Shown: positions 5,548 through 55,464 of the stretch, one piece after another
Numbering within the stretch: the stretch's first letter is position 1
Layout: each line of letters begins with the position of its first letter
Virus record (IMG/VR): IMGVR_UViG_3300020463_000027
Coordinates: 1-56,125 of that record
DNA length: 56,125 bases
Direction: 5' to 3' (one strand)
DNA from: a virus
Lineage: Duplodnaviria > Caudoviricetes
Program-made: the position numbers and the translations under genes
The notes under the pieces: generated by a model
What the model was told of the DNA's origin: nothing
The model's input: the letters and a program-made list of their open reading frames with translations, nothing else
Database searches by the model: none

Positions 5548-5940
5548 ATGCCACAACAGTCAACATTTAAAGATTTGAGTGTAGTATTCAAAAAACATCC
5601 TGTCACTGATGATCTAGTCACAGTGAAGGATAAGGTTGCTATTGCCCAATCAATCTCTAATTTGTTGCAGACAAATTCTGGTGACCGACCATTCAAACCT
5701 GATTTAGGTTCTGGTATTCGTGAACTATTGTTTGAACAAGCAGACTGGGGTACTGCTGCTGCTATAAGTGGTCGTGTCAGAGAATGTCTTGTTAAATACG
5801 AACCTAGAATTAATGTATTGACCGTCAATGCAGATCCTGATTTTGATAACAATGGTTTTGACGTTTCAATAGAATATGAAATTCTTGGTAGAGACGATGG
5901 CAGAATAGTTGCTGATGTATTTCTAGAACGTACAAGATAA
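5548..5940 (+). CDS. gp25: Baseplate wedge subunit gp25 (gpW/gp25 family)
   Basis: FKDLS...HPVTDDL, SISNLLQT..GDRPF.P.LGS.IRELLFE, YEPRI; position before gp6. Confidence 0.92.
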   Translation: MPQQSTFKDLSVVFKKHPVTDDLVTVKDKVAIAQSISNLLQTNSGDRPFKPDLGSGIRELLFEQADWGTAAAISGRVRECLVKYEPRINVLTVNADPDFDNNGFDVSIEYEILGRDDGRIVADVFLERTR

Positions 5941-7736: not shown

Positions 7737-7739
7737 GAA

Positions 7740-18875: not shown

Positions 18876-18890
18876 ATAATCGTATAAATA
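18866..18890 (+). promoter_or_regulatory. Tandem late promoters (2 x TATAAATA) formed by a 12-bp tandem duplication
   Basis: AATCGTATAAAT twice at 18866-18889; TATAAATA at 18871-18878 and 18883-18890. Confidence 0.8.
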
Positions 18891-28909: not shown

Positions 28910-29116
28910 ATGGATTATCTGAAGGTTGAAGGACATGATGGTCTTGTAAGAGACCAAAACACAGGTGCCATCTTGAATTTGGATGATTCTGCTATAGAGG
29001 CAAGAAGAAAGTCAAAACATCTAGGTTCCGCATTAGATGACATAAATATGTTGAAGAATGAAGTATCTGAACTTAAGTCCTTACTAAGAGAGTTAATCAA
29101 AAATGCCAGCAGTTAA
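28910..29116 (+). CDS. Small virion-associated protein, 68 aa
   Basis: KVEGH.GLVRD..TGAILN plus C-terminal coiled coil; typical follower of the DUF4815 gene; internal CATAAATA at 29041-29048. Confidence 0.75.
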   Translation: MDYLKVEGHDGLVRDQNTGAILNLDDSAIEARRKSKHLGSALDDINMLKNEVSELKSLLRELIKNASS

Positions 29117-40700: not shown

Positions 40701-43700
40701 GATGGTACTGGTGGTTCAATGAACCTAACTGAGACTGCTACTGGTAATCCTGTATCTACAAGTGCTCTCTCAGGTAAAGTAATTAAATTACATAGACCAT
40801 CTATCGTTAACTCATCATCACACACTTGGGAATTTGCTGGATCAGGTACTAACTACCTAGCACTACCTGAGAACGGTGGTACTAAGACAGAAGCATACGA
40901 ACAAGTTTCTGAACAGTATGGTCGTGTATACGTCTCTGGTACTGACGAACTTGGAGACTTTAAGGTTGGTACATTTGCTAACATTGAAAACAGAACTGGT
41001 GCGATTACCTTTACTGGTACGGTTACAATCTCTGAAGTTGAATTCTTAAAACTAAAAGGTGGTGACGTTGTTGTTACTGGTTTTGATGCATCTAACACAT
41101 TAGGTGGTGCTAACTCTAGTGACTCTAAACTACCTACACAGAAAGCGGTTAGAGATTACATCACTAACTCTTTAGGACCTTACATCAACAAACCATACTC
41201 TACTAACGCAGTTCCTAGAGCACTGGTTGAATTGACTGACTCTGGTAAGATATCTATTGACCAGATTCCTGCTCTAAGACCTTTCCAAGTCTTTACAGTT
41301 GCTGATCAAGCAGAAAGAACATCTCTAGAAGGTGCACTTGCTGGTGATATCGCAATCCAACAAGATACATCTACATCGTTCATCTTGAACAATGACAACG
41401 ATAGTTTATTCTTATCATTTGCAGTAGATTCTGGATTAGCATTTACAATAGGTGACGTATTCACAGGAAGTCTAACAACAGGAAGAATACAAGCAACAGA
41501 ATATAGACAAGGTGTTCTTTATCAGATCAACGTATCAAATGGTGGTTCTGGATATACGGTTGCTCCTACTATAACAATCAGTGGTGGTAATCCATCAGCT
41601 GGTGCAGTAGCTGCACAAGCATCTTGTACAATTGCAAATGGAACAGTTGTTACTGTTACTATCAATAGTTTCGGTGGATACATAGGTGGTTTAGGATATA
41701 CTACACAACCCACAATCTCATTTGCTGCTCCTCCAGGTGCTGGTGTACAAGCACAGGGTACTGGTTTAATTGAAAGTAGACTCTATGGTAATATTGTTAA
41801 TAATGTCAAGATAGAAGATACTGATACTATTGATGATAGTACAACACCAAGTGCAAATACAGTCAATCTTACTAGAGTTATTAACACATCATCATTTGAT
41901 AATAACAACTGGGTATCTCTATCATCTAACCAGATTGCTGCATCAGATATTACATCAGGTGTTATTGAAACAGATAGATTAGCAACAGGTGGTGCTGCGA
42001 ACTCATTCACATTCTTAAGAGGTGATCAGAACTTTGCATTAGCAGTTCAGTCAGTCAAGGGTGCAGAGAGTAGATACTTTGCTAAATTAGCAGCACAGTG
42101 TAGTAGTGGATCATCACAAATGATCTTTACAACTAACTCTGATGTTCTTATAGGACATGAAGTTAAGAATACTATCAGTGGAATACAAAATAACACAAAC
42201 ATTAATGGTGTTGTTACTGCTGCTGGTCTAACAACTATCTCTTTAAATAACCCAGTCAACGCAACAATTCCTTTAGGAACTATCATTGAGTTTGAGCGTG
42301 GTGCATCCCCATTGACATTTGAATCTACCTTTACTCAAGGTGGATTTGTTGATGATGTTATCGTCGCAAACGGAGGATCAGGGTTTACAAATGGACAGTA
42401 TTTTGATATTCCTCTTACTGGTGGTTCGGGAACGGGATTAAAATGTAACATTGTTGTTGCTGGTAACGTAGTTACAGAATTAACAGTAACAGATGGTGGT
42501 AGTGGATATAGTGCTGACTTTACTGTAACATCAAATCCAACTCAGATTGGTTCTGGTTCTAGTCTTGTTTTAGGAGCAAAAGTTTCTACAGTTAACAGAC
42601 AGTATGCAAACGTATCTCTTGATGTTAACAGAGTTACAGATCTTACTATCTCTGCTGACCTTTATGGAACAATTGGTGTTGGAAGATATAAAAAATCACA
42701 ATTTAATATTGGAACATCTGGAAATGGATCTATAGAACTTAAGACTGGTGCTGATAGTGGACTAGATGCTGACTTACTTGATGGTGTACAAGGTTCTTTC
42801 TACTTAGACGCTAGTAATCTAAATCAAGGTTTTCTTTCTAAGGATAGAATGTCTGGAATTTATGACATTGATGTTTCTGGTCAGTCTGGTAATACAATTA
42901 GACTTCTTACTGGTACTAACTTACCATCTTCAGATCCTGCACCAAACAACTTTGCTTCTGGTATTGTTTCAAACACTGTATTCAATAGTGCAGTTGGATT
43001 AAATGATGGTGGTACTAGAACTCAGATTCTTACATTAAGACAAGGTGGTGCTGGTTTTGATACTGGATTTGGTGGTGTAAGACAACTTGCATTTACAGAT
43101 AATGATAACTTCTATATTCGTGGATCTGGAACTGGTGTATCATCATTTGGATCTTGGGGTAAGGTTTGGACATCACTTAACGATGGTGTAGATTCTGATC
43201 TAGATGCTGACAGATTAGACAATAGACAAGGTGACTGGTATCAGAACGCACTTAATATTAACTATGGAACTCTTTCAACAGAAAGATTGCCATCATGGAT
43301 TGAAGCAACTAGAGTTAGAGATTCTCTTACAGTCAAGTCTTACTTAGGAGATCCTAAGTATAAGATTTATTTCTCAGGACTTATTCTAGATACATCTGCA
43401 ACTGGCGTATTTGCACCAGGTAATCCAATCAACCTATACAACTCTAACGCACAGGGTGTTGGTAGCTTTACAATTGATAATGTTGTAACGAATGATGATA
43501 CTTCTGATAACTTTAATGATTATACAATCATTATTGGTAGACTTACATCTGGTAATTTTGTTGGTGCTATAACTGCTGGTACTGCATCAAATAGAGTTGC
43601 ATTTGATGACTTCTCTATTGAAGATGGTAACACAGTTGATGTTGGTAAATTAGAAAGTTCTGGTGGAACTGCATTATTAAAACTGGGTAGAATTGATGGA

Positions 43701-45137
43701 CAATCATCAAGTCCTGCAATTTACTTTAGATCATCACAAACAGTTCCTGCTAGTGCTGATGGACATAGAACAGCATCTATCACTGCATCTGGTGGTAACG
43801 CAACTGCAAACTCAGGAACATTAGAAGTATCTGTTGCTAATGCTGATGGTCTTACAATCAACGGTCAGAAGATATGGAACGAAGGTAATGTAATATTCAG
43901 AAATTTAAACGTAGCAGACTCTGCTGTTCTTCGTGATTCATCTGGTAACTTCTCTGCTGGTACAATCACTGCATCACTATCAGGTGCAGCATCAGCAAAC
44001 GTATTGAAGACTGGTGACACTATGACTGGAACCCTAACCATTACAGGTGCTGGTTCTAACTTTAATGTATCTGGTAATGCACAAGTTTCTGGAACAACTA
44101 CTCTTACTAATGACCTTGCAGTAGACACTGATACATTATTCGTTGACATATCAACAGACAGAGTTGGTATTAATGCTGGTGTTAACCCATCAGCAACATT
44201 ACATGTTAAAGGTGATGATGGTATATTCATTCACACACTTACTAATGCTGTTGGTGCTAAGATTAAATTTAGTGATAATGCACCAACACCTGGTCAAAAT
44301 GGTACAATTGAATACAAACATGCTGACAGTAGTTCACCAAACTCTGAGTATGGTGAAGGATTTACAATATCTGGTGATCAACCAGAACTATATCTTCGTG
44401 TTGTTGGTGATATTATTGCATCTAGAAAATTAGGTATCAATATAAATCGTGAACCAGATTACACACTTGAGGTTGATGGCGATGCATTAATCAATGCAAC
44501 ACTTAATATTGATAACAACAATGATAATGGTGGTGCAAGAATAAACTTCCGTGGTGCTTCATCCTATAGAAACTTTGTAGTTAGTAATCAGGTAGTAGGT
44601 AATGATCTATTCACAATCCAAGCATCTACTAATAATGGTGGAACAACTTGGAATAGTACACCAGCATTTACAATTAATGGTAGTACAAATAGAGTTGCTA
44701 TCAACACAACTAACACATCTGGTACTGATCCCTCTAATAATCAGAACAGAAATTATCAACTAAATATACAAGGAGACGTTAACTTTAACGGAACTCTTTA
44801 CCAAAACAATGCTGAGTTTGTTACTTCTCGTTGGACAGAATCACCTAACGGAGCTGATATTTACAGACCATCTAAAGTTGGTGTTGGATTCTCAAGTGCA
44901 AAGAATCCAGACGAAGCATTAGAGGTTGAAGGTAACATTGAAGTTAGTGGAACACTCAAAGCAAATGGTGATAGTATGTGGATTGACACCTATGGTGTTA
45001 TGAAAGCAAACAGAAACACTGTTTCTGAAAACATTACAATCCCAACTAACATTAACTGTGGTAGTTTCGGACCTCTTGAAATTACTAACGGTACAACAAT
45101 TACAATATCAAACGGGGCAGCCTGGAGCATAATCTAA
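34755..45137 (+). CDS. Giant tail fibre/spike-like protein, 3460 aa
   Basis: KIATTEYV, GLDADLLDG and DLDADRLD fibre motifs, VLKTGDTMTG, RVGIN repeats, split pectin-lyase-like beta-helix, phycobiliprotein-like helical domains, C-terminal GPLEI..G.TITI..GA.W.I. Confidence 0.85.
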   Translation: MSFHINSDKEKIRGVNPKLIGDNEVTIRSGTGSGEKEILRAQLDSQTNLPRVGINRTGQRVNNITIDTAGSGYTVNPTVTIGAPNVAGGIQALASAFIFNGKVVSIAVNEPGSGYTTAPAISITEGGGAGATATAVLDTVDFELDINGAIRTSTSIISDTARILNLDIDNFVTPNAAFRAPNLKTYANNTGTPWSPNVIIRKDQYRYFGANMYQALNTGQTAASAPEHTDGTVLNGEVEFKHIGFRVVDPTEYQYNTSPESGEFPRSITPLLGDRSDKIATTEYVLNLATNDVGGRVYVSQQIGSDLNDGRSAVNPVRTIKKAAQEAWKTPGVKETIIVSGGDYVEDNPISLPPDCSVVGDNLRLVLIRPQNPNKHIMKFGDKNYVIGVTYRDQIDSNGDPVATWDFAMVFDDKQRVIIDKEANGDFGTQFEVGHQIFGPQQFRVVYQQNTGLSGLISGLKVKGVNTGSRAKISNVTFAETTGASAYVNGTVDVDLISGSFVAGERFEYITSVSPGSNTGMTVTQQQGVNTLRLTSDPTGTIPGGTTVQLVATPSTGNSFTGFYEIESIDSTQSASNIWDVKFFPLLSAPEWSGTGIGGTYTINAATPVVETFDTSTIKSIRAEGEVVSVDEDYTTTLPVSRIDFSLQGDPSIATGGFQSPQFGNAEDLGGIIFYTNALVGRTNTHEFKDGQEIEISGLSTSNPDLSVLMGKQRIYKVLEDADGRCRRFVIPKKLPSLTQSNYDPGQFAQVKNHSKVVLLSLLNSPNTFPLTSPVERRFQDACVFLRNNREFIADEVVGIINNQFARNYYSVYNISGSSFDIYLGQTTSTHTYVSGGTVTFGGTAYNVSGFLYDNIVTGVATVTTTSPVANLGEDQTIKLENVLLECDSGQKLYPSYSSPDSTSSISDGDEQCRQDVNHFINALVRDLEFGSNFNIIDAASKYVISDDIAYIKDEIIYNVRAIEYARQLAILAMRNWRTDTGTTNDPIYVPKYSSVPRYFDDTVITSTALLNADGSANNTGFACNDVRAAIDTLSFLWVDVITKNQSGTYLDAAYLISRNKHLIADQALLDAEANYPLLNLSDLNERKCRRDIRLILDGLVKDLVFGGNEGVVNAAELYFTGTALTGVPEAQRPATIFAVNRAKYYAQECMRNWTDGNILETTPNTATYDAQTGALTVTIPDPIITPTTGDRVAFKEDALNWSCNYNGTTANHAGPSQTDPTYGKSHEITNVTSSGGSTTISCNVGNAGAGASSPHSFVSAITDATILIYNPTPMSSDIPKFEDWNILIDPQASAASSVFTPTDASYNAANGRLELTLGAGHGVTTSDTVRITPDSLVMTCGMDANATEHSYPQSGHPAYGNYVNVESTTTGTITVDVGTPGTNKNFTPTDATYDPATGLLELTIGTGHGIDIDEGLVINQDSLTFTCTMDGNQSQKTYPRFGKDYWNGRSLPTVAVSDTTVTVNIGTSPANKLLTAVTGTTYNPNTGDLVLQVGQHGIGVGRNIVLEDGAVTFTCDQDSNGTTHPYPRSTDPASGASLAITAVGTTSHTATDAPYNALNGDIVFTITNHGFEVGDYIKIDDNALTYTCVLDGNTAQKTYPRTNYDRASGKWLQITSKTQNTFVINVGTSPYTGTHSFVSAAAGGIKRQDGTLTVNVGTSSNTTTHTFTTGLANGVKFLPQSTHTFVSANSNAISHTPGSTHTFVRSANSSISIYAAGANTLCSGVNNTINTLMDLLEDILDGTIAPGATTTNNGTLYDTAQIISYPDNFIYDQNNNRLAIRGIFDDYPIIEASPYTQNASVISFLGGGGALVDGSKVKQPNCPFPGLELDGSASFPNQGKSMVASAFTIVSFGGTGYKVINDGYTQLVSVFVIFCADGVLAESGGYCSITNSATNFGIFALRGVGYRAECYSFDQGTVSNVSATPTGRTILTVSGLGREPLEHYVVKIDGYTNTNTDIEYFVDVVAGVTVGPPFSAQLTIDDGTGGSMNLTETATGNPVSTSALSGKVIKLHRPSIVNSSSHTWEFAGSGTNYLALPENGGTKTEAYEQVSEQYGRVYVSGTDELGDFKVGTFANIENRTGAITFTGTVTISEVEFLKLKGGDVVVTGFDASNTLGGANSSDSKLPTQKAVRDYITNSLGPYINKPYSTNAVPRALVELTDSGKISIDQIPALRPFQVFTVADQAERTSLEGALAGDIAIQQDTSTSFILNNDNDSLFLSFAVDSGLAFTIGDVFTGSLTTGRIQATEYRQGVLYQINVSNGGSGYTVAPTITISGGNPSAGAVAAQASCTIANGTVVTVTINSFGGYIGGLGYTTQPTISFAAPPGAGVQAQGTGLIESRLYGNIVNNVKIEDTDTIDDSTTPSANTVNLTRVINTSSFDNNNWVSLSSNQIAASDITSGVIETDRLATGGAANSFTFLRGDQNFALAVQSVKGAESRYFAKLAAQCSSGSSQMIFTTNSDVLIGHEVKNTISGIQNNTNINGVVTAAGLTTISLNNPVNATIPLGTIIEFERGASPLTFESTFTQGGFVDDVIVANGGSGFTNGQYFDIPLTGGSGTGLKCNIVVAGNVVTELTVTDGGSGYSADFTVTSNPTQIGSGSSLVLGAKVSTVNRQYANVSLDVNRVTDLTISADLYGTIGVGRYKKSQFNIGTSGNGSIELKTGADSGLDADLLDGVQGSFYLDASNLNQGFLSKDRMSGIYDIDVSGQSGNTIRLLTGTNLPSSDPAPNNFASGIVSNTVFNSAVGLNDGGTRTQILTLRQGGAGFDTGFGGVRQLAFTDNDNFYIRGSGTGVSSFGSWGKVWTSLNDGVDSDLDADRLDNRQGDWYQNALNINYGTLSTERLPSWIEATRVRDSLTVKSYLGDPKYKIYFSGLILDTSATGVFAPGNPINLYNSNAQGVGSFTIDNVVTNDDTSDNFNDYTIIIGRLTSGNFVGAITAGTASNRVAFDDFSIEDGNTVDVGKLESSGGTALLKLGRIDGQSSSPAIYFRSSQTVPASADGHRTASITASGGNATANSGTLEVSVANADGLTINGQKIWNEGNVIFRNLNVADSAVLRDSSGNFSAGTITASLSGAASANVLKTGDTMTGTLTITGAGSNFNVSGNAQVSGTTTLTNDLAVDTDTLFVDISTDRVGINAGVNPSATLHVKGDDGIFIHTLTNAVGAKIKFSDNAPTPGQNGTIEYKHADSSSPNSEYGEGFTISGDQPELYLRVVGDIIASRKLGININREPDYTLEVDGDALINATLNIDNNNDNGGARINFRGASSYRNFVVSNQVVGNDLFTIQASTNNGGTTWNSTPAFTINGSTNRVAINTTNTSGTDPSNNQNRNYQLNIQGDVNFNGTLYQNNAEFVTSRWTESPNGADIYRPSKVGVGFSSAKNPDEALEVEGNIEVSGTLKANGDSMWIDTYGVMKANRNTVSENITIPTNINCGSFGPLEITNGTTITISNGAAWSII

Positions 45138-45138
45138 C

Positions 45139-45993
45139 ATGAGCACACTACAAGTCAGAAATATTCAAGGACTTTCTAATTTTAGTAATGAAGTCACTCT
45201 CCCTAGTGGTCACTCACTAGTTATAGATGGTAGTTTAAGAGTTCCAACATGGAATAATACAACCCAACCTAGTAGTCCTTCTACTGGATTAATTGGGTAT
45301 AATACAGAAGAAGAAGCATTAGAAATTTATAATGGTACAGAATGGCAGTCTGCTGGTTCTGCTAAGTTGGATGGTTCTTCTCCAGATAAAGCATCTACAT
45401 CAGGACTGCAATTAGTAACAGATAATCCTACTTTAACTAGTGGTTTATATTGGATTAAATCTTCTAGTATGCCTAATGCATTACAAATGTATGTTGATAC
45501 ATCATATGATGGTGGTGGATATGACTTTTATGCTACAAAAGGATCAGGTCCTAGTGTAAGTTATATTACAGACACCCATGCAGGAGTTTCTTTAGGATTA
45601 GAGATGTGGGAAGGGAGATCTAGAAACTGTTGGTTAGCAGCAACTAATGCAGTAAACTCATTAGACTCAGGAAATTTTAACAGTTATTGGGAAGGAGTAG
45701 GGCATGTATACAAACCAAATGGTGGCGGTAACTACACTGGTTGTATCATGAGAAGTTCTTATTATGGTGGAAATAATTGTGCTGACTGGAGAGTAAAGAG
45801 TGGTAACAAATGGTGGATTAGAGATAGTACTCACTCAGAACCTAACGGTGACTATAGTGGTAACGGATTTCAAAGAATTTATAGTGGTAGTAGACCAAGC
45901 GTAGGAAGTGTATCAACTAGTATGGGATTTAACGATGGTGGTGCATATTCTATAGGAAATTATTATTTACTTTCCACAAACGCAAAAACGTGA
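45139..45993 (+). CDS. Putative receptor-binding/fibre-tip protein with fibrinogen-like domain, 284 aa
   Basis: MSTLQV start; GLIGYNTEEEALEIYNGTEW fibre module; DGSSPDKA; SGLYWI...QMYVD...GGGY. Confidence 0.65.
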   Translation: MSTLQVRNIQGLSNFSNEVTLPSGHSLVIDGSLRVPTWNNTTQPSSPSTGLIGYNTEEEALEIYNGTEWQSAGSAKLDGSSPDKASTSGLQLVTDNPTLTSGLYWIKSSSMPNALQMYVDTSYDGGGYDFYATKGSGPSVSYITDTHAGVSLGLEMWEGRSRNCWLAATNAVNSLDSGNFNSYWEGVGHVYKPNGGGNYTGCIMRSSYYGGNNCADWRVKSGNKWWIRDSTHSEPNGDYSGNGFQRIYSGSRPSVGSVSTSMGFNDGGAYSIGNYYLLSTNAKT

Positions 45994-46020: not shown

Positions 46021-46167
46021 ATGAAAGCTTACATAATTTACATCATCATAGGTATATTCTTCCTAACATTAATCAAAGGAACACTTAAGATTGATAGGAG
46101 TGAACGAAACCAAAGACTGTACAATGAACTATGTCAGATAGATAAAGATTATTGTGTAGAAGAATGA
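46021..46167 (+). CDS. Small single-pass membrane protein, 48 aa (MKAYIIYIIIGIFFLTLIKG...CQIDKDYCVEE)
   Basis: Translated by hand; hydrophobic N-terminal helix; ATGA coupling to 46164. Confidence 0.7.
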   Translation: MKAYIIYIIIGIFFLTLIKGTLKIDRSERNQRLYNELCQIDKDYCVEE

Positions 46168-46778
46168 ATCTAATTTTTGATTCTGAGCATGTCAAAGTTT
46201 ATGATGATGTGCTTCCAGAAGAGGATTTTGGGATGTTGTTTGAATGGTTTAATATAATACCCTTTATGAACATTCAAAAAACTGAGGGTGTATGGAATCA
46301 TGTTTGGAGTCCTGATGCAAAAGTATTAAAGGGACAACCAATATATTTTCCAGCAGGAAGAGTTCCTCCTCTTGATGGTATTGATAAATCTTTAATATCA
46401 ATTATAGAAAAAATTAATTCTATAATTAATGAAGGTAGAGTTACCATGACTCCATATTACTACATGCCAGAATCTGGACTAAATTGGCATAATGATCGTG
46501 CTCATCAAAAAGCATTTACTTTTTATTGTCACAAAAGTTGGTCACCAGAATGGGGTGGAGAGTTTCAAACGCTTGATTTGAAAGGTGAGGATAGGAAAAT
46601 AGTTTGGAAAATTTTTGACAATAAAGAATTATTTGATGCTATGATTGATAGAGGCATAGGACAATTCTTTCACCCTAAACCAAATAGATTAATTGTGAAC
46701 TCTGGTATAATGCATAAAATTAATACAACTAGCAAAGATAGTAGTGCTAGACTATCGTTACAAGGATTTATTGCTTAA
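46164..46778 (+). CDS. 2OG-Fe(II) oxygenase (prolyl 4-hydroxylase-like)
   Basis: LNWHND, AFTFY....W..EWGGE, PKPNRLIV, MHKI, RLSLQGF; ATG 46164 preferred over TTG 46152. Confidence 0.85.
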   Translation: MNLIFDSEHVKVYDDVLPEEDFGMLFEWFNIIPFMNIQKTEGVWNHVWSPDAKVLKGQPIYFPAGRVPPLDGIDKSLISIIEKINSIINEGRVTMTPYYYMPESGLNWHNDRAHQKAFTFYCHKSWSPEWGGEFQTLDLKGEDRKIVWKIFDNKELFDAMIDRGIGQFFHPKPNRLIVNSGIMHKINTTSKDSSARLSLQGFIA

Positions 46779-46780
46779 TT

Positions 46781-47470
46781 ATGGAACATCAAATAATTGA
46801 ATTTTTTCCACAAGTTTGTGGAGTATACACATATCCAGAAGATAAAATTGTAAATATTAAATTAGTATGTCAAAAAATTAGAGATACTATAAAACCAGGC
46901 GATGAAAATTATAATCAGAATGCATTATGTGGTGATCTATTTCATTATTATAATGAATCTAACACAAACATATACGATTTTCATCCAGAGCTAGAAGATC
47001 ATAGAAAATGGGTTACTGAATGTGCTACTCATTTTTTTACTGAAGTTCATAACTATGTTCTATCAGATGAAAATGAATTATTGATGACTGATGCTTGGAT
47101 GAATTATTGTTTAGAGAGAGGACAGCAAACAGAACATAATCATCACAATTCGTTGATATCAGGAACATATTATGTTAACATGATAGATTGGGTTCATGCA
47201 CCTATTCAATTTATGAAGAGAGAACCAGAGTGTCATCCCTATATCGCTCACGCAAAAGACTGGGACTCCCCTAATAAATATAGTAGGTATGTTGAAGACA
47301 TTAGACCTAAAGAAGGAGATCTTCTACTTTGGAAGTCTCATTTATTACATGGTTATAATGGTAATCTCAACATGTGGGCAGATAGAACATCTATCTCCAT
47401 GAACTTTATGCCTAGGATACTAGACAATGGTAAATACTCATTTGTAATTAACAATAGAAACGATGGATAA
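46781..47470 (+). CDS. Putative 2OG-Fe(II) oxygenase, TIGR02466-like
   Basis: AWMNY, HNHHNSLISGTYYV, PKEGDLLLWKSHLLHG, RTSISMN. Confidence 0.8.
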   Translation: MEHQIIEFFPQVCGVYTYPEDKIVNIKLVCQKIRDTIKPGDENYNQNALCGDLFHYYNESNTNIYDFHPELEDHRKWVTECATHFFTEVHNYVLSDENELLMTDAWMNYCLERGQQTEHNHHNSLISGTYYVNMIDWVHAPIQFMKREPECHPYIAHAKDWDSPNKYSRYVEDIRPKEGDLLLWKSHLLHGYNGNLNMWADRTSISMNFMPRILDNGKYSFVINNRNDG

Positions 47471-47750
47471 ATTTCCCAGAAAACGATCTGCCTTCAGAGT
47501 ATGGATAGAAGGTCGCAATAAAGAACTGCAAAATTACATTGCAAACAGAAAAATTAATTATCCAGAAATTGGAGAACAATTAGATGCCATATGGCATGAC
47601 ATTGATGATGGCATCTTACCTGGTAAAGAAGGAAGATTCTATAGAATACTGGCAGATAACAAAAGAAGATACAAATCTCCTAAGTGGGATGTGGATGAAT
47701 TTATAAAATATGATTTTTCTAAGGAACAGTTTGACGAAGACTTAGACTAA
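47463..47750 (+). CDS. Hypothetical protein, 95 aa; possible fibre-assembly helper
   Basis: R...YPEIGEQLDAIWHDID motif resembles small proteins found beside phage tail-fibre genes. Confidence 0.6.
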   Translation: MDKFPRKRSAFRVWIEGRNKELQNYIANRKINYPEIGEQLDAIWHDIDDGILPGKEGRFYRILADNKRRYKSPKWDVDEFIKYDFSKEQFDEDLD

Positions 47751-47753
47751 ATA
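47747..47753 (+). promoter_or_regulatory. Late promoter (CTAAATA)
   Basis: Upstream of AAAGGAG RBS and ATG 47778. Confidence 0.6.
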
Positions 47754-47777
47754 AGAAAAGGAGTCTAGTGTAAAAGA

Positions 47778-49145
47778 ATGGCGTCAACATTAAGAACTGA
47801 TAATATATCAACTCTGTCTGGAACAGGAGCAGTAAATATTGCACAGAGTGTTGGCATTCAAGGCAACATAGATTTTACTGGAAACTTGTTACAGAATGGA
47901 CAACCATTTGTTACTTTACCAGAACAATCTATAGAAACCATGGGTGCTACACTAGCATCTGATGGTATCACAGCATACTGGGCACATCCAAATACATTTG
48001 AAAATAATGCTGGTAGTACAAATATGCCACCAGGTGATGCAGATACAGGTGGTATAAACTTACAGAACCCAGTAACACCAGCTAACGGTTATCTACCTTT
48101 TGATGGAACTGGTAATTGGTATGACTATCAAGGAAATACTTATTCAATAAACGTAGGATCAGAATTTAAGTATAGAAGTATTTTTACACATGGGTTCTTG
48201 ATGGGTGGATATAGAGGAGCAAACCCATGGAGAACTGTTAACCAAACATTCCATGCTACAGACGTTACTATATGTCGTGGAGACCAATTAGATAGAGCAG
48301 CAACCTATGTTGATGGAAACTTTGGAGATTATAACGGATATGTTTATGGTGGTAACAACAGTTGGGGAGGAAACTCTGCACATACTTCTTCTATAAACTT
48401 ACACACAGGAACAGGGAGAACAGCTGGATCTTCACCATCTTATAACACAACTGATAACTATAGTACCACACCTGACACTATTGGTGTTGGTTGGGACTTA
48501 TATGGTTCTGTTAACGATTCTGGTGCTACATCAGGTCAGACTGTACAAAGAGGTTATGTTACAGGTGGTGGTGACCAAGGAAGTAGTTCTTGGGGTAGAA
48601 TGAACTTCTCATCAGAACTAATGTCTAGAGTTGGTGGAGGACATACATCTGACTTCTGTTCTGCCACTGAAGGAGAACTTAGAGGATATTCTTATTCTGA
48701 CACAGGTAACTCTAGATATATTGAGTTTGCATCTGAATCAACTGGAAACTGGAGTACATCTAATATTACTGGTGATGGTTGGAAAAAATCTTTATCTACA
48801 AAATGGAATATTGGTTATCATGGTAACGGTAATAATGTTCAGCAGCAATGGATGAAGTTTACACATAACTCTGGAGCATTTATATCAACCTTCAATCAGA
48901 TTGACGTTGATTCTGGTGAAGAGAATATGGAAATGGGTCAAGACTGGGGATACATGATGGGTAACTACTCAGGTGGTGGTGGATCTGGTAATGCTCGTCA
49001 GAACAATAGATGTATGAAAATATTCCATGCTAATGATAGTATGACTATGATGGGATATAAAACAGAACCAAAAGGACACCAAGGTCAATCATCAGGAGCA
49101 TGTGTCACAGCAGCATTTACTGTAACTGCTACAAGATATCAGTAA
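47778..49145 (+). CDS. Virion structural protein with predicted six-bladed Kelch-like beta-propeller, 455 aa
   Basis: MASTLRTDNI...GNIDFTGNLLQNG fibre-type N-terminus; six G(Y/F) repeats (HGFLMGG, NGYVYGG, RGYVTGG, RGYSYS, IGYHGN, WGYMMGN). Confidence 0.6.
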   Translation: MASTLRTDNISTLSGTGAVNIAQSVGIQGNIDFTGNLLQNGQPFVTLPEQSIETMGATLASDGITAYWAHPNTFENNAGSTNMPPGDADTGGINLQNPVTPANGYLPFDGTGNWYDYQGNTYSINVGSEFKYRSIFTHGFLMGGYRGANPWRTVNQTFHATDVTICRGDQLDRAATYVDGNFGDYNGYVYGGNNSWGGNSAHTSSINLHTGTGRTAGSSPSYNTTDNYSTTPDTIGVGWDLYGSVNDSGATSGQTVQRGYVTGGGDQGSSSWGRMNFSSELMSRVGGGHTSDFCSATEGELRGYSYSDTGNSRYIEFASESTGNWSTSNITGDGWKKSLSTKWNIGYHGNGNNVQQQWMKFTHNSGAFISTFNQIDVDSGEENMEMGQDWGYMMGNYSGGGGSGNARQNNRCMKIFHANDSMTMMGYKTEPKGHQGQSSGACVTAAFTVTATRYQ

Positions 49146-49146
49146 T

Positions 49147-50082
49147 ATGAAAAAGAAACTTAATTTTATAGAAGAAAAAGCATTTGAGGTAGAATGGACT
49201 TCTAAGATACCATCACATATGGTATTGGATGAGGACATGCTACGTCCAGAATATGAACCATCACATCCACTTGAAATAGAAGTTAGAAAGTTTATTAAAG
49301 ATAAAGAAGACATACAGAAGGGATATATTATTATGGGTCTATGTGAAGAGGACCTTCGTTCTATGGAATTGAGACCACATGATACAACATATCATAATTG
49401 TTATAATTTTTATAACATATCAATTGTTAAAATGAAACGTGATGTATTTGAAACACTAAAATCTGGTCTTAAAAGATATATTGAATTTACTGAAAGAGAA
49501 CTACATGATGGTGTAAACTATGCTGGTGAAGTAAGACAATACTCAAAAGATTATATTGCTTCTATGGATGAGAGAGGACAAGTTCAATGGAATAAAGGTA
49601 AAGTTCCAATGAACTCTAAAAAAATTATTAATGCACTGTCTTGGATGAGAAAGTTGGCAATCTTAGTTATTGAAAGAGAATTTGAATTGAGATTTAAAAA
49701 CTTTAAAAATTGCCATGATGTAGAAAGTGAGTCATGGACATATCAATTACCAGAAGCAAGAGCATATAAAAACAGTTCAGATGCAGAAACACCTTTCTTA
49801 GATATACTTGCAATGACTAGAGGTATGAGAAAAGAGATATTGGTTGACAAAGTATTAGAAAAACATAATGAATATGTAAGAGCATACGCAGCACTCTTAG
49901 GTAAATATCATGCTATTCGTTCACAATTCAAACTTGCGGACAATATGTGGGACATGAATATCCTCTGGGAAGACTACCTAAATATAGGTATGCCACGAGT
50001 TCAAGCAACTAAGTTAGGACGAGTGGATGACAACATGAACAGATTGAACGGTGAAGTCGCATATGGAACATTCGGATTCTAG
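49147..50082 (+). CDS. Hypothetical protein with tail-fibre-assembly-like C-terminal domain, 311 aa
   Basis: E..SW..Q..EARAY....A.TPFLD.LA..RG.....LV.KVL.K motif, recalled from proteins encoded next to tail fibres. Confidence 0.6.
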   Translation: MKKKLNFIEEKAFEVEWTSKIPSHMVLDEDMLRPEYEPSHPLEIEVRKFIKDKEDIQKGYIIMGLCEEDLRSMELRPHDTTYHNCYNFYNISIVKMKRDVFETLKSGLKRYIEFTERELHDGVNYAGEVRQYSKDYIASMDERGQVQWNKGKVPMNSKKIINALSWMRKLAILVIEREFELRFKNFKNCHDVESESWTYQLPEARAYKNSSDAETPFLDILAMTRGMRKEILVDKVLEKHNEYVRAYAALLGKYHAIRSQFKLADNMWDMNILWEDYLNIGMPRVQATKLGRVDDNMNRLNGEVAYGTFGF

Positions 50083-50917
50083 TATTGATTTAAGATCTAA
50101 ATTATCAAATTCTGATATTATAGATGCTGCAGTAAATTTGGAAATGGGACAGACAATGTATCAGAATGATACTTTTGTTGTTGGTTCTCAGATTACTCCA
50201 TACAAAAAAGTTCAACAAGCATTGTTGGAACTAGAAGCAAGACAACATGGGTATGTTGAATTACAGTACAAACATAAGTTATGTACAAACTCAAGAAAAA
50301 AATTAGAACGTGAGTTAGAAAAAGAAAAGAATAGACCTGACTCAGATGAATTGGAAGTAGAGAGAATAGAAATAGAATGGGACAAAGCAAAGTACGACGA
50401 GTCTTTGTTTGAGAAAAAGTATCTTACATATGAGAGAGAAATATCTGAGTTCTGTGATATGGTTCGCAACCACATGGACGATAAGAAAAGTATAGAATAT
50501 TATCGTATAACACAAGAAGACGAGGATAGACAGTATTGGATTACTAGAATGGCAAAACAAGCTGCAGTTGACGTACACAACTGTGGTAGGATTGGAAGTG
50601 GTAATTTAGATTCTATTTTAAATATGCCAGCAGAAGATCAGTTAACTGCTATACAAGGTGCTGTAGAACATGCTACAATGTTAACAGCAGGAGTAGAAAA
50701 AATGGCACAGCAATTGTTGCCAGAAGTTAGAAAAGTGATTGAAGGATCATTTCAAAATTATTCCGTTCCTAAACTTATGGCAGAGATATCTAAAGATATT
50801 GAACCTAAAAAACTTAAAAGTCCTATGACTCTTGAATTGAAAAGTCCTGTTGAAAAACAGATTTTAACAACCTTACCTAATGACAAGATCCGTCTTCAGT
50901 CTCCCAATAAATCCTAA
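50063..50917 (+). CDS. Coiled-coil hypothetical protein, about 284 aa
   Basis: FVVGSQITPYKK.QQALLEL, long E/K coiled coil, YWITRMAKQAA.D....GRIG.GN.DSI..M; ATG 50063 preferred over GTG 50051. Confidence 0.75.
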   Translation: MEHSDSSIDLRSKLSNSDIIDAAVNLEMGQTMYQNDTFVVGSQITPYKKVQQALLELEARQHGYVELQYKHKLCTNSRKKLERELEKEKNRPDSDELEVERIEIEWDKAKYDESLFEKKYLTYEREISEFCDMVRNHMDDKKSIEYYRITQEDEDRQYWITRMAKQAAVDVHNCGRIGSGNLDSILNMPAEDQLTAIQGAVEHATMLTAGVEKMAQQLLPEVRKVIEGSFQNYSVPKLMAEISKDIEPKKLKSPMTLELKSPVEKQILTTLPNDKIRLQSPNKS

Positions 50918-52607
50918 ACTTGATAAACAGTTTACGGATGGAATGTTTATTCCATGGTTGACAAAATATAAAGTTTACATTAAAGACTTGTACTTTACAT
51001 GTAGAATGCCACCCTTCACTCAAGATGCGATGGGTGATGTTTTTGCTGGAGATATATCTCAGTTAGTTTTTAACTCTTTAGTAATATCAAGAGAGACAGA
51101 GATACCTATCTCAGCAACATTCAATAACATATATGTTAGACCTGATCAAGAAGGATTGGATTTATTCATTCATAATTTCAGACAAATATATGAAAATTAT
51201 AATGTTCGTATTGCTACGATACCACACACTACATGGGTATCGTCTGGTCAAATTCAGTCAGCATTTCCTGACTTAAAAATTAAGAATACTATACTGAGGA
51301 ATGTTTGTAAGGCAAACGATATCGTAAATCTTGCTAAGTCTGGCTTTCATTATATCAACTTAGATAGAGATATGATGCGTGATAAGACTGGATTACTAGA
51401 GATAAAAAAAGCAAAGGAATACTGCGAGAAAATTGGCAAACCAGTAGAGATTTCATTACTAGCAAACGAGGGTTGTTGGGGTGGTTGTACAATTATGGAT
51501 GAACATTATCATTTTAATAGTACGAGACAAGGTAAGTCTCCACAGTTCTTTATGGATCCTATCAGTACAAACTCTTGTTCTAAATGGGATATAGAAGATC
51601 CTTCTTCTGCATTGAAAGCAGCAAACTTACCTCCATGGAGAGAAGATTGGGAAGAGTTCCTTGACCTTGGCATAGATGTATTCAAGATGCATGGTAGGGA
51701 AAATATGATGAGACTTAAAGAGTCTATGGATATTATAGAGAGATGGGCAAAAGAAGATGAACTTCTATTCCCTGAGTTTGATGAGTATATGGATGACTTA
51801 AAAGTAAAGGATGCTCCGATAAACTTGTGGAGGGAAAAGATTAAAACATGTAAGTTTGACTGTTGGGATTGTAATTATTGTGAGTCTGTTGTAGAGTCAC
51901 ATCTTAAGAAAAAAGGAGAGACATTTGATGTAGAAGAATATACACAAAGGTGTATGGATGCTATTGATAATGCATCATCATTCAAATCTAATTTCGTATC
52001 AGATGGGTATGAAGTTCGTGGAATTACATCAGATAGAGTTAGACATTTTTTAAATAATCTCTGTTCTTATGATGACTCAGTATATCTTGAACTAGGAACA
52101 TTGATGGGCAGTACTTTTTTTGCTGCTACTATGGGTAATGATATAGAAAATATCGGTGTTGATAATTATTCAGAACCAGAATGCAAACCATTGACTAATA
52201 ATATTCAATGGAATGAAGTAGGTAATACTTTTGAAGAGTTTAAAAGATACTTTGATAAGTATGAAAATGGAAAATCAACATTTATAAAATCTGATATACT
52301 TGATTTAAAGGAAAAAGATTTTGAAGGTAAGAAACCAAATGTGGTATTCTATGATGCTAACCATGATTATGTTCAACAACTTAATTGTTTGAATCATATT
52401 GCACCTTTCTTAGCAGACAAATTTATTCTTATAATAGATGACGCTAACTTTGATGGGGTAATTGAATCGGCAATACAATTTGTCAAAGATAATAATTATG
52501 ATCTGTATTTTGAGAGAAAAATTCTTAGTGCGATCATAGAAAATCCAACACATTGGTGGAATGGTTTATTTGTAATGGTATTGGAGAAACCTAATGAAAG
52601 TAATTGA
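50880..52607 (+). CDS. Fusion of U32-family (peptidase U32-like Fe-S TIM barrel) domain and class I SAM methyltransferase (Methyltransf_24-like)
   Basis: INLDRD, LLANEGCWGGC, NSCSKW, DVFKMHGR, CKFDCWDCNYC; C-terminal YLELGTLMGST, VVFYDANH, ILIIDD, WWNG. Confidence 0.75.
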   Translation: MTRSVFSLPINPKLDKQFTDGMFIPWLTKYKVYIKDLYFTCRMPPFTQDAMGDVFAGDISQLVFNSLVISRETEIPISATFNNIYVRPDQEGLDLFIHNFRQIYENYNVRIATIPHTTWVSSGQIQSAFPDLKIKNTILRNVCKANDIVNLAKSGFHYINLDRDMMRDKTGLLEIKKAKEYCEKIGKPVEISLLANEGCWGGCTIMDEHYHFNSTRQGKSPQFFMDPISTNSCSKWDIEDPSSALKAANLPPWREDWEEFLDLGIDVFKMHGRENMMRLKESMDIIERWAKEDELLFPEFDEYMDDLKVKDAPINLWREKIKTCKFDCWDCNYCESVVESHLKKKGETFDVEEYTQRCMDAIDNASSFKSNFVSDGYEVRGITSDRVRHFLNNLCSYDDSVYLELGTLMGSTFFAATMGNDIENIGVDNYSEPECKPLTNNIQWNEVGNTFEEFKRYFDKYENGKSTFIKSDILDLKEKDFEGKKPNVVFYDANHDYVQQLNCLNHIAPFLADKFILIIDDANFDGVIESAIQFVKDNNYDLYFERKILSAIIENPTHWWNGLFVMVLEKPNESN

Positions 52608-53304
52608 TAGAAAACTTTTTTCTGTAGCACACCCATCTAGTTGGGAAGTAGAGCAAAAACACATAGGAAAACATAAAAATAGACTAGTAATAGTCAGAGA
52701 TTTTTTTCAATATCCTGATGAGTTAAAAGCATATGCACAATCCATAGATTATGTTTCCACATATCAAGGAGAGGTTACAAATCTACCAGGTTTCATTCAT
52801 TATATGAGCATACATAAGAAAGCTTTGTATGAACCAATGAAGTATGTGGCAACAAAATACTTTGAAGGTAGTGGTGAGATAATGAGATTTCCTGATGAGA
52901 CTAGGTTTGGATTTCAGATATATGATATGAAAGAGAAGTGTAGATATCAAAGTTTATTTCCACATACAGATGAAGTTAGGTATGCTGGTGTCTTGTCTTT
53001 CAATACAGAAGACGAATATGATGGTGATGATAATGGCACATCATTCTTTAGAAGTGAAGAGACAGGAGAAGAGACTACATTGTATGATAAAAACTATAGA
53101 GCAAAAAGATTATTAAATCCTGTACAGGCAATGGTAAACTTTGATCCATCTCAGGTAAAGCATAAAGAATGGACAAGGTATCATATAGAACCACATGAAT
53201 TTAACAAATTAATCATGTATGAGGGTAACCTTTGGCATTCAATTCATTTCCAACAAAAAAAGTGGAACGCAAATAGAATGACTTTTAATGCTTTTATACG
53301 ATAA
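52594..53304 (+). CDS. 2OG-Fe(II) oxygenase-like protein (DUF6445-like)
   Basis: VIVRDFF..PD, PHTD, YAGVLSFN, GTSFFR, FNKLIMYEG.LWHS, RMTFNAF. Confidence 0.75.
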   Translation: MKVIDRKLFSVAHPSSWEVEQKHIGKHKNRLVIVRDFFQYPDELKAYAQSIDYVSTYQGEVTNLPGFIHYMSIHKKALYEPMKYVATKYFEGSGEIMRFPDETRFGFQIYDMKEKCRYQSLFPHTDEVRYAGVLSFNTEDEYDGDDNGTSFFRSEETGEETTLYDKNYRAKRLLNPVQAMVNFDPSQVKHKEWTRYHIEPHEFNKLIMYEGNLWHSIHFQQKKWNANRMTFNAFIR

Positions 53305-53307
53305 ATA
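53300..53307 (+). promoter_or_regulatory. Late promoter (GATAAATA)
   Basis: Overlaps the stop of 52594-53304, upstream of 53334. Confidence 0.65.
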
Positions 53308-53333: not shown

Positions 53334-54572
53334 ATGGGTATAATAAATGTAAATCAAGTTAGTGCTCAACAGGGAATAAAATTTCAAGGTTTTGCAAATG
53401 AAAACGCTTACCCAACAAATTTGGGAACAAGTGATGCTGGTTTTTTAATATACGATACTGCTTTAGCAGCATTAGTTATTTGGGATGGTGCAAACTGGAG
53501 TCAAATAAAAATGAAAGGTGCTGTCAATGATGGTACAGAATCATCTAAAGCAAACGGTTCTGCTATGATGATACTTGTAGATATTATAGCAGCTGGTGGA
53601 AGTTTGCAAGATGTCAGAGCATTGGAAGGACCTCTGTGGTTAAATCCTGCTTTATTTGGTGGAAGTAATGCAAGTGCAGCACCATTTCAAGTATGGTGTG
53701 ATATGACTACACAGGGTGGTGGGTGGACGTTATCTATTAAGTATGATAGACAACAAGTGGAATCTACCAACTGGAATGTTTATTCTTTAGAAGATAAGGG
53801 TGGTAGAGAATATTATAATAATCTAGGACTTGATACACTAGATGCAAATGGTCAAGTGTATGAAACTTTAAATATGAGAGATTTAATTAATTGTAATAAA
53901 GCTCTCGGTAATGGTTATGCTGGAAGATGGATGATGCACTGTTGCACAGATGCTGGATCTGGAATTGGAAGATTGGAATATACTGCAAATAATTTTAGCA
54001 CTGCTAATCAAGCATCAGAGAGTAGAACTGCAGGATCATCTACATCATTATCACATTCACCAATGTTTTCTCAATTTCATAAAAATGTTATTGAAGATCC
54101 TAATAGATTGTGGGATACAGATGGAGCTCAAGTAACAAACTCCAATAGTGCTAGTGTATCAACTTATCAAGATTATCAAGTTCCTAGTGATATTACTACA
54201 TATGGTGGAGGTAACTTTTATAAGTTAGGTGATGATGCAACAAATCCTTCAGAAGATTTTATTATGACCAATGCATCTTATATACCTAATAGTAGTGATA
54301 CTAATGGTAGAGTTCTAAGACAAGACCATTTAGATGGCAACTATATGTTCTCTGTTGGTAATAGAGAAGGTGGTGTATATTGTTCTGGAACTAATAACAC
54401 AAACTTGCGGGGTCACCAATCTCCTGCATTTAACTGGGGATTTCATTCAAAGGACAACACTCAGCAAACTTATGGTTATGGTTCTAATACTACCATAGGC
54501 ACACACTGTAATGCTAATAGTGGTGGTGCCTATAGACCAGGTAAAAGAATGAATTACATGTTTACAAGATAA
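53334..54572 (+). CDS. Putative receptor-binding/fibre-tip protein with fibrinogen-like domain, 412 aa
   Basis: GFLIYDT....LVIWDGANW module, DGTESSKA, PFQVWCDMTTQGGGWTL. Confidence 0.7.
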   Translation: MGIINVNQVSAQQGIKFQGFANENAYPTNLGTSDAGFLIYDTALAALVIWDGANWSQIKMKGAVNDGTESSKANGSAMMILVDIIAAGGSLQDVRALEGPLWLNPALFGGSNASAAPFQVWCDMTTQGGGWTLSIKYDRQQVESTNWNVYSLEDKGGREYYNNLGLDTLDANGQVYETLNMRDLINCNKALGNGYAGRWMMHCCTDAGSGIGRLEYTANNFSTANQASESRTAGSSTSLSHSPMFSQFHKNVIEDPNRLWDTDGAQVTNSNSASVSTYQDYQVPSDITTYGGGNFYKLGDDATNPSEDFIMTNASYIPNSSDTNGRVLRQDHLDGNYMFSVGNREGGVYCSGTNNTNLRGHQSPAFNWGFHSKDNTQQTYGYGSNTTIGTHCNANSGGAYRPGKRMNYMFTR

Positions 54573-54576
54573 TAAT

Positions 54577-55464
54577 ATGAGTCAAATTAATGCAGGAAAA
54601 TTTATTGCTAGTACGGGAGTAGAATTTCCTAGTTACACCAATAATAATAAACCAACAAACCTTGGTACAGGAGCAACAATATACAATTCTGATACTGAGA
54701 AATTGGAAACTTGGAATGGATCTGAATGGATGGTTATCGGTGGTGGATCTGAACCAGATGGATCTACTCAAGATAAAGCAGCAATTAGTGCTGCATCAAT
54801 TTTAGCAATAAATCCTGGAGCACCAGATGGTGTCTATTGGATTAACTTACCTACCGTTGGTGCTAAACAAGTATATTGTGCTATGAATTCAAACCATCTT
54901 GGAGGTGGTGGATGGATGTTAGCATGGAAGTGCACTAGAGGATCTACATTTCCCTATGATTCAAACTACTGGACTACAGCAAATGTATACAATGAAACGT
55001 CTGGATTAAATCTTAATGATGGCGATCATAAAAATCATGCATTTAATTATTATGTTGCAAGCACTCTAGCAGCAGTGTTTCCTGATTTAAACAATGGTGG
55101 ACAGTCAAGTGTACCATATAATGGTTGGACATGGAAACAAAGTGGAGTTGGACAAACTGCATTAACTAGGTTACAAAATAATCAACAGTTATCTAGTAAT
55201 CCTCGTGGAGAAAGTAGCATGTCTGGATCAGGTTGGTCTAATCAAAATGGATATCAGTGGTATGGATTTAATTATACAGGTAACAATAGTAACAGAGTTC
55301 GTTGGGGATTTGGTTGGAATAATGAAAACAGTCAAAACTCAAATGATGTTACTAGTGGTATAGCACCTGTAAGATCTGGAAATAGTGCAGGGGATCATAT
55401 CTATTGTTGTCAAGGAACTACTGGTGTAAATAGATCAGTAAGAGCTGAGATTTGGGTACAATGA
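54577..55464 (+). CDS. Putative receptor-binding/fibre-tip protein with fibrinogen-like domain, 295 aa
   Basis: GATIYNSDTEKLETWNGSEW module, DGSTQDKA, DGVYWI...QVYCAM....GGGGWML. Confidence 0.7.
   Translation: MSQINAGKFIASTGVEFPSYTNNNKPTNLGTGATIYNSDTEKLETWNGSEWMVIGGGSEPDGSTQDKAAISAASILAINPGAPDGVYWINLPTVGAKQVYCAMNSNHLGGGGWMLAWKCTRGSTFPYDSNYWTTANVYNETSGLNLNDGDHKNHAFNYYVASTLAAVFPDLNNGGQSSVPYNGWTWKQSGVGQTALTRLQNNQQLSSNPRGESSMSGSGWSNQNGYQWYGFNYTGNNSNRVRWGFGWNNENSQNSNDVTSGIAPVRSGNSAGDHIYCCQGTTGVNRSVRAEIWVQ

Follow-up and report, generated by a model that had tools for sequence, protein, structure and literature searches.

Conserved Four-Gene Module of T4-like Cyanophages Linking a Kelch-like Propeller Protein to a Divergent U32-like Barrel and a Predicted O-Methyltransferase

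We report a conserved four-gene module in a T4-like cyanomyovirus (Kyanoviridae) that links a predicted propeller protein to two helical proteins and a predicted two-domain enzyme. The module lies in a stretch of 56,125 nucleotides (nt), positions 1 to 56,125 of IMG/VR virus record IMGVR_UViG_3300020463_000027 (Duplodnaviria; Caudoviricetes), hereafter the window, which also carries baseplate wedge genes, giant fibre-type open reading frames (ORFs) and many 2-oxoglutarate (2OG)-oxygenase-like genes. The four genes, here g1 to g4, stay together in cyanophages, in more distant viruses and on a bacterial chromosome, and they probably form an undescribed maturation system. Our tentative reading, at a probability of roughly 0.4, is that g2 to g4 mature the g1-type propeller protein by hydroxylation and then O-methylation. 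The four genes, the two domains of g4 and the gene that follows (g5) are laid out below; SAM stands for S-adenosylmethionine, TIM for triosephosphate isomerase and aa for amino acids.

47778-49145, plus strand: g1, 455 aa, fibre-type protein, PHROG 1417
49147-50082, plus strand: g2, 311 aa, helical protein, PHROG 1604, 1-nt gap after g1
50063-50917, plus strand: g3, 284 aa from its ATG, helical and coiled-coil-like protein, PHROG 1409, 20-nt overlap with g2
50880-52607, plus strand: g4, 575 aa, 38-nt overlap with g3
50880-51914, plus strand: g4 N-domain (residues 1-345), predicted divergent U32-superfamily TIM barrel
51996-52607, plus strand: g4 C-domain (residues ~373-575), predicted class I SAM-dependent methyltransferase of the cation-dependent O-methyltransferase type
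52594-53304, plus strand: g5, 236 aa, DUF6445, 14-nt overlap with g4

An alternative start for g3 is the GTG at 50051. The tight packing or overlap of five genes described in a first-pass annotation of this stretch was confirmed, and the stop/start overlaps at g2/g3, g3/g4 and g4/g5 would fit co-translation.

Co-occurrence was surveyed with tblastn in 50,697 phage records. Matches to g3 and g4 were found in 126 records each (123 cyanophage and three Ralstonia phage, the latter matching only the barrel of g4), to g1 in 123 and to g2 in 122, of which 111 were cyanophage-named and the others, from Helicobacter prophages and a Pasteurella phage, matched over a short length. For g1, g3 and g4, sorting by organism name gave identical counts (77/38/8), from which we infer that the same records carry all three. 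Under the names "Synechococcus" and "Cyanophage," the module was present in 77 and 38 records, against 374 and 61 for a baseplate gp6 control; the block is therefore accessory and gained or lost together, and by these name counts it occurs in about one quarter of cyanomyovirus isolate records.

Among uncultured marine phage contigs, tblastn confirmed 542 stretches with the module, and the IMG/VR locus counts given here cover the 80 closest to the window. The methyltransferase was in line with the barrel in 76 of these 80 loci. Where at least 3.6 kb was available upstream of g4 (50 loci), the order g1<g2<g3<g4 was kept in 45, and the remaining five were without only a detectable g2; g3 lay less than 400 nt from g4 in 42 of the ordered loci and farther away in three. 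Fixed co-occurrence across phages, the check put forward in the first-pass annotation, was thus found for g1 to g4. The fifth gene behaved otherwise, with matches in nine phage records. In the 64 IMG/VR loci with enough DNA downstream of g4, g5 was adjacent in 26 and farther downstream in nine, a different 2OG-oxygenase-like gene was adjacent in 13, and neither was present in 20. As g5 assorts independently, the unit has four genes, not the five first proposed, and g5 is a clade-specific, optional add-on outside the conserved core. The table of Sullivan et al. 2010 gives T4-GC 351, 353 and 354 as common to five of 16 cyanophage genomes, with 352 in four of those five and 351 in one more. No description of the module was found among the matches listed in the literature on cyanophage U32 peptidases, kelch proteins or tail fibres.

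More distant contexts come from a few loci (L084, L110-L113, L117, L118 and the Ralstonia jumbo phage RP12). In L110-L113, where the barrel is 44% identical, the order is tandem propeller paralogues (two to three where the contig reaches; L112 starts downstream of them), g3, g2 and a radical SAM gene, after which a stand-alone barrel and a Methyltransf_24 protein are encoded by two separate genes; in L112 and L113, these are followed by a gene of 290 aa and one for a DUF401-like membrane protein. The order in L117 runs propeller, g3, g2, barrel, methyltransferase, the last as a gene of its own, and L118 has g3, g2 and the fusion. The chromosome of a Leptospirales metagenome-assembled genome encodes a 1,523-aa protein with DUF6519, DUF2341 and Laminin_G_3 domains, the C-terminal ~285 aa of which match the g1 profile (independent E value, 4.9e-11; the sequence is outside the profile). 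After it come g3-like, g2-like, barrel, DUF401-like and patatin genes. The 19 kb upstream of this locus hold ordinary cellular (housekeeping) genes and no phage genes, and a canonical U32 was not matched in this genome.

In RP12, a g3-like gene (ORF140; g3 profile, E = 2.7e-29), the barrel (ORF139) and a DUF401-like permease (ORF138) stand in a row, with no g2-like gene detected in that phage. Two genes upstream of ORF140 lies ORF142 (292 aa), which is probably the RP12 propeller, judging by length and shared short motifs; its hhalign comparison with the g1 profile gave a weak match, at 4.1% probability (E = 0.01). A 292-aa RP12 protein was also a structural neighbour of g1 (E = 5e-12; template-modelling [TM] score, 0.73).

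The permease belongs to a DUF401/TIGR00529-like family, follows the barrel gene and keeps 36-38% identity across the bacterium, the Ralstonia jumbo phage and marine viral contigs. Among the literature matches listed for DUF401, none described what the family does. DUF401-like permease genes were located as follows:

L113, 8655-9662: DUF401-like permease gene
L112, 4291-5292: DUF401-like permease gene
L084, 10978-12180: DUF401-like permease gene
L003, 7338-8378: DUF401-like permease gene
L062, 4703-5710: DUF401-like permease gene

Among the cyanophage-like loci fetched, only L062 has the permease and none has the radical SAM gene; neither gene was matched in the window. Across all versions, four parts are constant (the g1-type propeller, g2, g3 and the barrel), and the methyltransferase joins them in all marine viral versions; the radical SAM gene, the permease and 2OG oxygenases are optional. 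That the parts stay together through reordering, fission or fusion and a move from phage to bacterium argues for a functional unit. In L112, the minus strand at 5817-10579 adjoins the module with genes for a family 2 glycosyltransferase, two nucleotide-sugar epimerases and UDP-galactopyranose mutase, which points to a viral glycan pathway beside the fibre module.

The full-length model of g4 was of high confidence (predicted local distance difference test [pLDDT], 91.3; predicted TM score [pTM], 0.80). In a structure search of 48,161 representative chains, independent of Foldseek, the U32 peptidase Mk0906 (5d88) ranked first (Z score, 17.3; root mean square deviation [rmsd], 3.2; 229/247 residues; model residues 1-279). 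All other top-50 entries (Z ≥ 12.5) were methyltransferases, so no second barrel reaches Z 12.5. With hhalign, a phage-family profile (16 sequences) matched a canonical U32 profile, built from 25 ORFs of a genome search with PF01136, at 93.9% probability (E = 1.6e-7, 206 columns), in a register that places C199 and C203 on two U32 signature cysteines and KMHGR on KIEGR. Seven cysteines are invariant in 63 sequences: C199, C203 and C233 in the barrel, and C324, C328, C331 and C334 in a C-terminal C-x3-C-x2-C-x2-C cluster, which could be an extra ligand source or a second metal site. These data support, at superfamily level, the prediction that the N-domain of g4 is a very divergent U32-superfamily barrel outside the Pfam family, and it may bind an iron-sulfur (Fe-S) cluster. 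The TIM barrel, the two signature cysteines and K-x-x-G-R are common to g4 and U32 proteins (UbiU/UbiV, TrhP, RlhA; Mk0906, 5d88). The cysteine spacing is C-x3-C in g4 versus C-x6-C in U32, the cysteine-rich tail is extra, and, unlike canonical U32, the g4 barrel is fused to a methyltransferase and linked to a propeller and two helical proteins.

Searched with the N-terminal 350 residues of g4, the barrel family comprises 237 representative clusters (E ≤ 1e-3), made up of barrels on their own (~340-380 aa), fusions (~560-580 aa) and longer proteins. A search of PDB sequences with g4 gave no match, and the sole match of the barrel profile, to a zinc finger, was non-significant (E = 0.69). Whole-model Foldseek matches to PRMT5 and pyruvate kinase (rmsd, 22-25 Å) were set aside as two-domain artefacts of a barrel plus a Rossmann fold, and NCBIfam matches of YopJ type, scoring 18.7 and 14.1 bits where the cut-offs are 275 and 610, were treated as chance. 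Annotations of g4 orthologues (S-CAM4 gp161, P-SSM4_035) begin ~40-50 codons past a conserved N-terminus (window, 50880-51030; L001, 9001-9141; L002, 12466-12591) that is modelled as a strand and has nearly invariant F6, S7 and P9, and the annotated proteins are probably truncated.

The C-domain gave the only Pfam match in g4 (Methyltransf_24, PF13578; residues 403-521; 28.8 bits, against a cut-off of 26.3). Its structural neighbours were TomG, MeT1, TrmR, COMT, SafC, CCoAOMT and MycF, with Z of 14-16.3 and all tied within ~2 units; the TrmR structures 5zw3 and 8k1f, among the top neighbours, scored Z 15.7-15.9 and 13.7. Invariant in 21 sequences are E404, G406, G410, D428, D492, D520, D521 and N523 (domain numbering plus 350). 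D492, D520, D521 and N523 may correspond to the acidic metal ligands of COMT, and H495 presumably occupies the place of the catalytic Lys of cation-dependent O-methyltransferases. By sequence and model, the C-domain is assigned to the cation-dependent class I O-methyltransferase type; it has the fold of COMT, CCoAOMT, SafC, TomG, MycF and MeT1 (Methyltransf_24, Methyltransf_3) and an invariant glycine-rich loop that would bind SAM. The methyltransferase profile matched nothing significant among PDB sequences, and the PHROG label "DNA methyltransferase" for this domain (E = 1.7e-6) was set aside as generic.

For g1, the model (built from 43 sequences; mean pLDDT, 73.7) was confident over residues ~120-450 (pLDDT, ~85-93), and the N-terminal ~120 aa were of low confidence and poorly defined. 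With the confident part, Foldseek found six-bladed Kelch domains (Keap1, KLHL12) and designed six-bladed proteins; the Kelch domains matched with TM of 0.75-0.82 (by target), rmsd of 3.2-3.5 and E of ~1e-10. The six propeller repeats noted earlier from the sequence were thus recovered, the model confirming the C-terminal ~330 residues as a predicted six-bladed Kelch-like beta-propeller. Unlike Kelch-type propellers, with which it has the six-bladed fold in common, g1 has no Pfam Kelch motif (0 Pfam families at E ≤ 0.1), and it constitutes a separate family (PHROG 1417) that always accompanies g2, g3 and g4. Its BFVD neighbours included Kelch-like and "virion structural" jumbo-phage proteins, together with the RP12 protein mentioned above, and public records name its homologues "sericin 1 precursor-like protein." The N-terminal segment of g1 orthologues resembles neighbouring virion-protein paralogues in some clades, and no such likeness was detectable in the window. 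We regard g1 as a likely, putative virion fibre protein.

No known family was matched by g2 or g3 (Pfam and NCBIfam), and their profiles gave nothing significant against PDB sequences. Conserved positions in g2 are E193, which is invariant, and W197, Q200 and the C-terminal F311, each kept in ≥90% of 23 sequences. The g2 C-terminus ends in aromatic-x-Phe after a variable stretch, which might represent a docking tail or a modified segment. An Atlas feature search described the C-terminal part of g2 as HI1402_helical-like (score, 0.90; a lead only) and gave no usable match for g3. The conserved motifs of g3 are YW..R..KQ..D and G....GN. No test supported the first-pass description of g2 as fibre-assembly-like; that of g3 as a coiled coil agrees with its helical character, and the coiled-coil-type Pfam matches are weak.

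Late expression is documented for orthologues of these genes. PHM2_098 to PHM2_101 of phage P-HM2 are all classed as Late, in both light and dark infections, in supplementary file 6 of PMC5082946. They share T4-GC numbers 351-354 with P-SSM4 genes and are orthologues of g1 to g4. Late expression is thus shown for the P-HM2 orthologues; for the window phage, a late transcription unit is suggested by motif position, with two late-promoter-like motifs as follows:

47747-47753, plus strand: CTAAATA, 31 nt upstream of the g1 ATG
53300-53307, plus strand: GATAAATA, inside the end of g5 and 34 nt upstream of the next gene (53334)

Of the late promoters said in the first-pass annotation to bound the cassette, both motifs are in position, and neither is the exact T4 octamer TATAAATA. 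The exact octamer is rarer than chance (three in the window, against 8.3 expected), so the promoter argument rests on position, not number. Among the 51 related loci with enough DNA upstream of g1, 38 have a [ACT]TAAATA word 29-45 nt upstream of the g1 start, with differing flanks, and similar words precede several other gene starts in the window by 29-44 nt. An internal CTAAATA at 49978-49984, within g2 and 85 nt upstream of the g3 ATG, may be a second start point or chance. Two exact TATAAATA octamers at 18871-18890, 12 nt apart, lie 47 and 59 nt upstream of a baseplate wedge gene (18930).

Under the maturation reading, g1, its two helical partners and a U32-like barrel joined to a catechol/TrmR-type O-methyltransferase would form a late-expressed accessory module. 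The pairing of domains in g4 suggests two successive reactions. In the first, the U32-like domain would introduce a hydroxyl group at an aromatic C-H without O2, by the prephenate-type chemistry proposed for U32; in the second, the methyltransferase would cap this hydroxyl to give a methoxy group. The tailored propeller would then become a fibre tip of the assembled particle, with g5 as an optional oxygenase-like add-on in one clade. The hydroxylase and O-methylase activities are putative, as are a protein as their substrate and the placement of g1 in the virion. The metal-chelating, receptor-mimicking and defence-shielding roles put forward in the first-pass annotation are speculative. Known U32 proteins have been tied to hydroxylation that depends on prephenate but not on O2, with ubiquinone precursors and RNA as targets (PMC10990095). 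The gene arrangement resembles that of systems that mature modified peptides and cofactors derived from proteins, in which a substrate-like gene stands beside redox and methyl-transfer enzymes; the radical SAM gene and transporter of such systems occur in the distant versions of the module too. The likeness is organisational only, and no short precursor peptide, leader-recognition domain or known maturase family was detected. A more specific form, which we think unlikely, is a U32 branch acting on proteins, in which an Fe-S barrel with two helical adaptors would hydroxylate an aromatic side chain of the propeller without O2 and the fused methyltransferase would convert the hydroxyl to methoxy, giving a new post-translational modification of receptor-binding fibres of marine phages and of giant bacterial surface proteins.

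Several observations weigh against the maturation reading. According to PMC10990095, all U32 proteins with an assigned role act on RNA or ubiquinone precursors, and direct hydroxylase activity is undemonstrated even for UbiU/UbiV, TrhP and RlhA. The third cysteine of the U32 cluster has no counterpart in g4, and C233 falls one column off the fourth in hhalign. The first-pass description of g4 as a U32 Fe-S/SAM-methyltransferase fusion stands at fold and profile level and fails at Pfam level: PF01136 was not matched by g4 at E ≤ 0.1 or by any of 32 family members at E ≤ 0.01, and a six-frame PF01136 search of the window's record gave no match (controls matched in 8 of 14 genomes). Sugar and tRNA methyltransferases tie in Z with the O-methyltransferase neighbours of the C-domain, so its fold does not fix the acceptor type. 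The column "Existence of Proteomic Data?" in the table of Sullivan et al. 2010 is blank for T4-GC 351-354; the virion analysed was that of S-SM1, to which the table gives no T4-GC 351-354 gene. No virion proteomics of a module-carrying phage was found among the literature matches listed. An O2-labile Fe-S enzyme would be an odd choice in an oxygen-evolving host. Finally, the recurrence of the DUF401-like permease and of the radical SAM gene suits a small-molecule pathway no less well than a protein substrate.

Such a pathway, in which the barrel and methyltransferase (in some loci with the radical SAM enzyme) and the permease make or import a methoxylated aromatic or a cofactor that the propeller binds or uses, is kept alive by these two genes, though on balance we doubt it. 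The specific permease follows the barrel in the Leptospirales locus, RP12, L112/L113 and L062, the radical SAM gene is found in L110-L113, and the C-domain neighbours COMT, CCoAOMT, SafC and TomG methylate small catechols; the U32 proteins UbiU/UbiV act on a quinone precursor, according to PMC10990095. The window, however, has neither gene, the permease reaches the cyanophage-like loci only in L062, and a small-molecule product leaves no obvious job for g2 and g3, which are as conserved as the barrel.

Nucleic acid modification is a less likely alternative again. In Gram-positive tRNA, TrhP and TrmR convert U34 to 5-hydroxyuridine (ho5U) and then to 5-methoxyuridine (mo5U) with the same pair of enzyme types as g4, a U32-type protein and a COMT-like Mg-dependent O-methyltransferase. 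The genes of the U32 pair and of TrmR lie close together in Bacillus. On this account, g4 would act on RNA of the phage or its host like TrhP plus TrmR, or like RlhA, which gives 5-hydroxycytidine (ho5C) in 23S rRNA, and its fibre neighbourhood would be positional only. TrhP and RlhA are U32 proteins tied to RNA hydroxylation, as far as described in PMC10990095, PMC6599085 and PMC5727448, and the TrmR structures are among the top C-domain neighbours. The Z scores to TrmR are nevertheless tied with those to many non-RNA O-methyltransferases, g4 and TrmR gave no sequence-level match, and no RNA-binding feature was identified in g4. Compared with TrhP plus TrmR, g4 is one polypeptide, late and placed in a phage fibre region. 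The late expression of the P-HM2 orthologues with structural genes and the linkage to the propeller, g2 and g3 in phages and a bacterial chromosome argue against an RNA target, as does the presence of the module in only about a quarter of cyanomyovirus records.

A non-redox role, with the barrel as a peptidase, chaperone or virion component for the propeller fibre, g2 and g3 as assembly factors and the cysteines binding zinc for structure, appears improbable. The U32 family was originally named as peptidases, the sole PDB sequence match of the C-terminal Cys4 cluster is the non-significant zinc finger, and late timing and fibre linkage would suit assembly factors; against this, the constant O-methyltransferase pairing (fused in cyanophages, separate in L110-L113 and L117) would go unexplained, and the conserved cysteines align with U32 Fe-S ligands. 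That there is no functional unit, and that the genes are neighbours merely through the variable fibre region of cyanomyoviruses, is very improbable: the region is mosaic, with different nearest relatives for a baseplate gene and the module, and g5 and other oxygenase genes come and go, but the same four parts recur, in changed order and through fission or fusion, in unrelated viruses and on a bacterial chromosome.

If the enzymes do tailor the propeller, as the maturation reading has it, the U32 superfamily would gain its first protein substrate and the phage host-recognition organ a new chemical decoration, bearing on host range and adsorption in those phototroph-phage systems that are most abundant in the sea. 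Even with an RNA or small-molecule target, the barrel family is a clear, testable, unannotated branch, without a Pfam model for its 237 clusters, of a family whose chemistry is under active study. Cultured phages that carry the module exist, which makes experiments feasible; among them are P-HM2 (host MED4), P-SSM4 (host NATL2A) and, on Synechococcus, Syn19, Syn33, S-RIM2 and S-ShM2.

For the cassette region, the nearest isolates, Synechococcus phages S-CAM4 and ACG-2014j, align with 42% of the query at ~78% nucleotide identity, and gene order in S-CAM4 equals that of the window across the cassette. The closest relatives differ by gene, with S-WAM2, S-B43 and S-RSM4 for the baseplate gene and S-CAM4 for the module. 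Upstream of the module, four giant ORFs of fibre type lie on the plus strand, at 7740-18875 (3,711 aa), 20801-28900 (2,699 aa), 29103-34205 (1,700 aa) and 34755-45137 (3,460 aa), and relatives of the last directly precede g1 in many related contigs. Three paralogous virion-type proteins (45139-45993, 53334-54572 and 54577-55464) have an N-terminal segment of ~100-140 aa in common, with BLASTP E values of 3e-9 to 6e-14 for two pairs and 0.004 for the third; the 412-aa paralogue has a weak fibrinogen C-domain match (19 bits, below the cut-off).

The optional g5 matches Pfam DUF6445 (50.7 bits), and the HxD...H motif seen earlier is borne out, with H124, D126 and H215, the predicted iron triad, invariant and R228, the candidate distal Arg for 2OG, in ≥90% of 14 sequences; by sequence, g5 is 2OG/Fe(II)-oxygenase-like. 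One homologue, in phage Sf-FS3, is annotated as a prolyl 4-hydroxylase. The PHROG label "minor coat protein" for g5 was found to be without support, as the HxD...H features indicate an oxygenase. Comparisons by hhalign with two other oxygenase-like proteins of the window were not significant, and the g5 profile had no match among PDB sequences. At least five 2OG/Fe(II)-oxygenase-like genes are present in the window (3542-4117, 4117-4698, 46152-46778, 46781-47470 and 52594-53304). PHROGs labels 46152-46778, as well as 2404-2904, "DNA endonuclease V," which is probably misleading; 46152-46778 matches Pfam 2OG-FeII_Oxy_3 at 24.6 bits, below the 27-bit cut-off. A 219-aa protein at 4695-5354 matches PHROG 3704 "ferredoxin" (E = 1.3e-115) and is a possible electron carrier.

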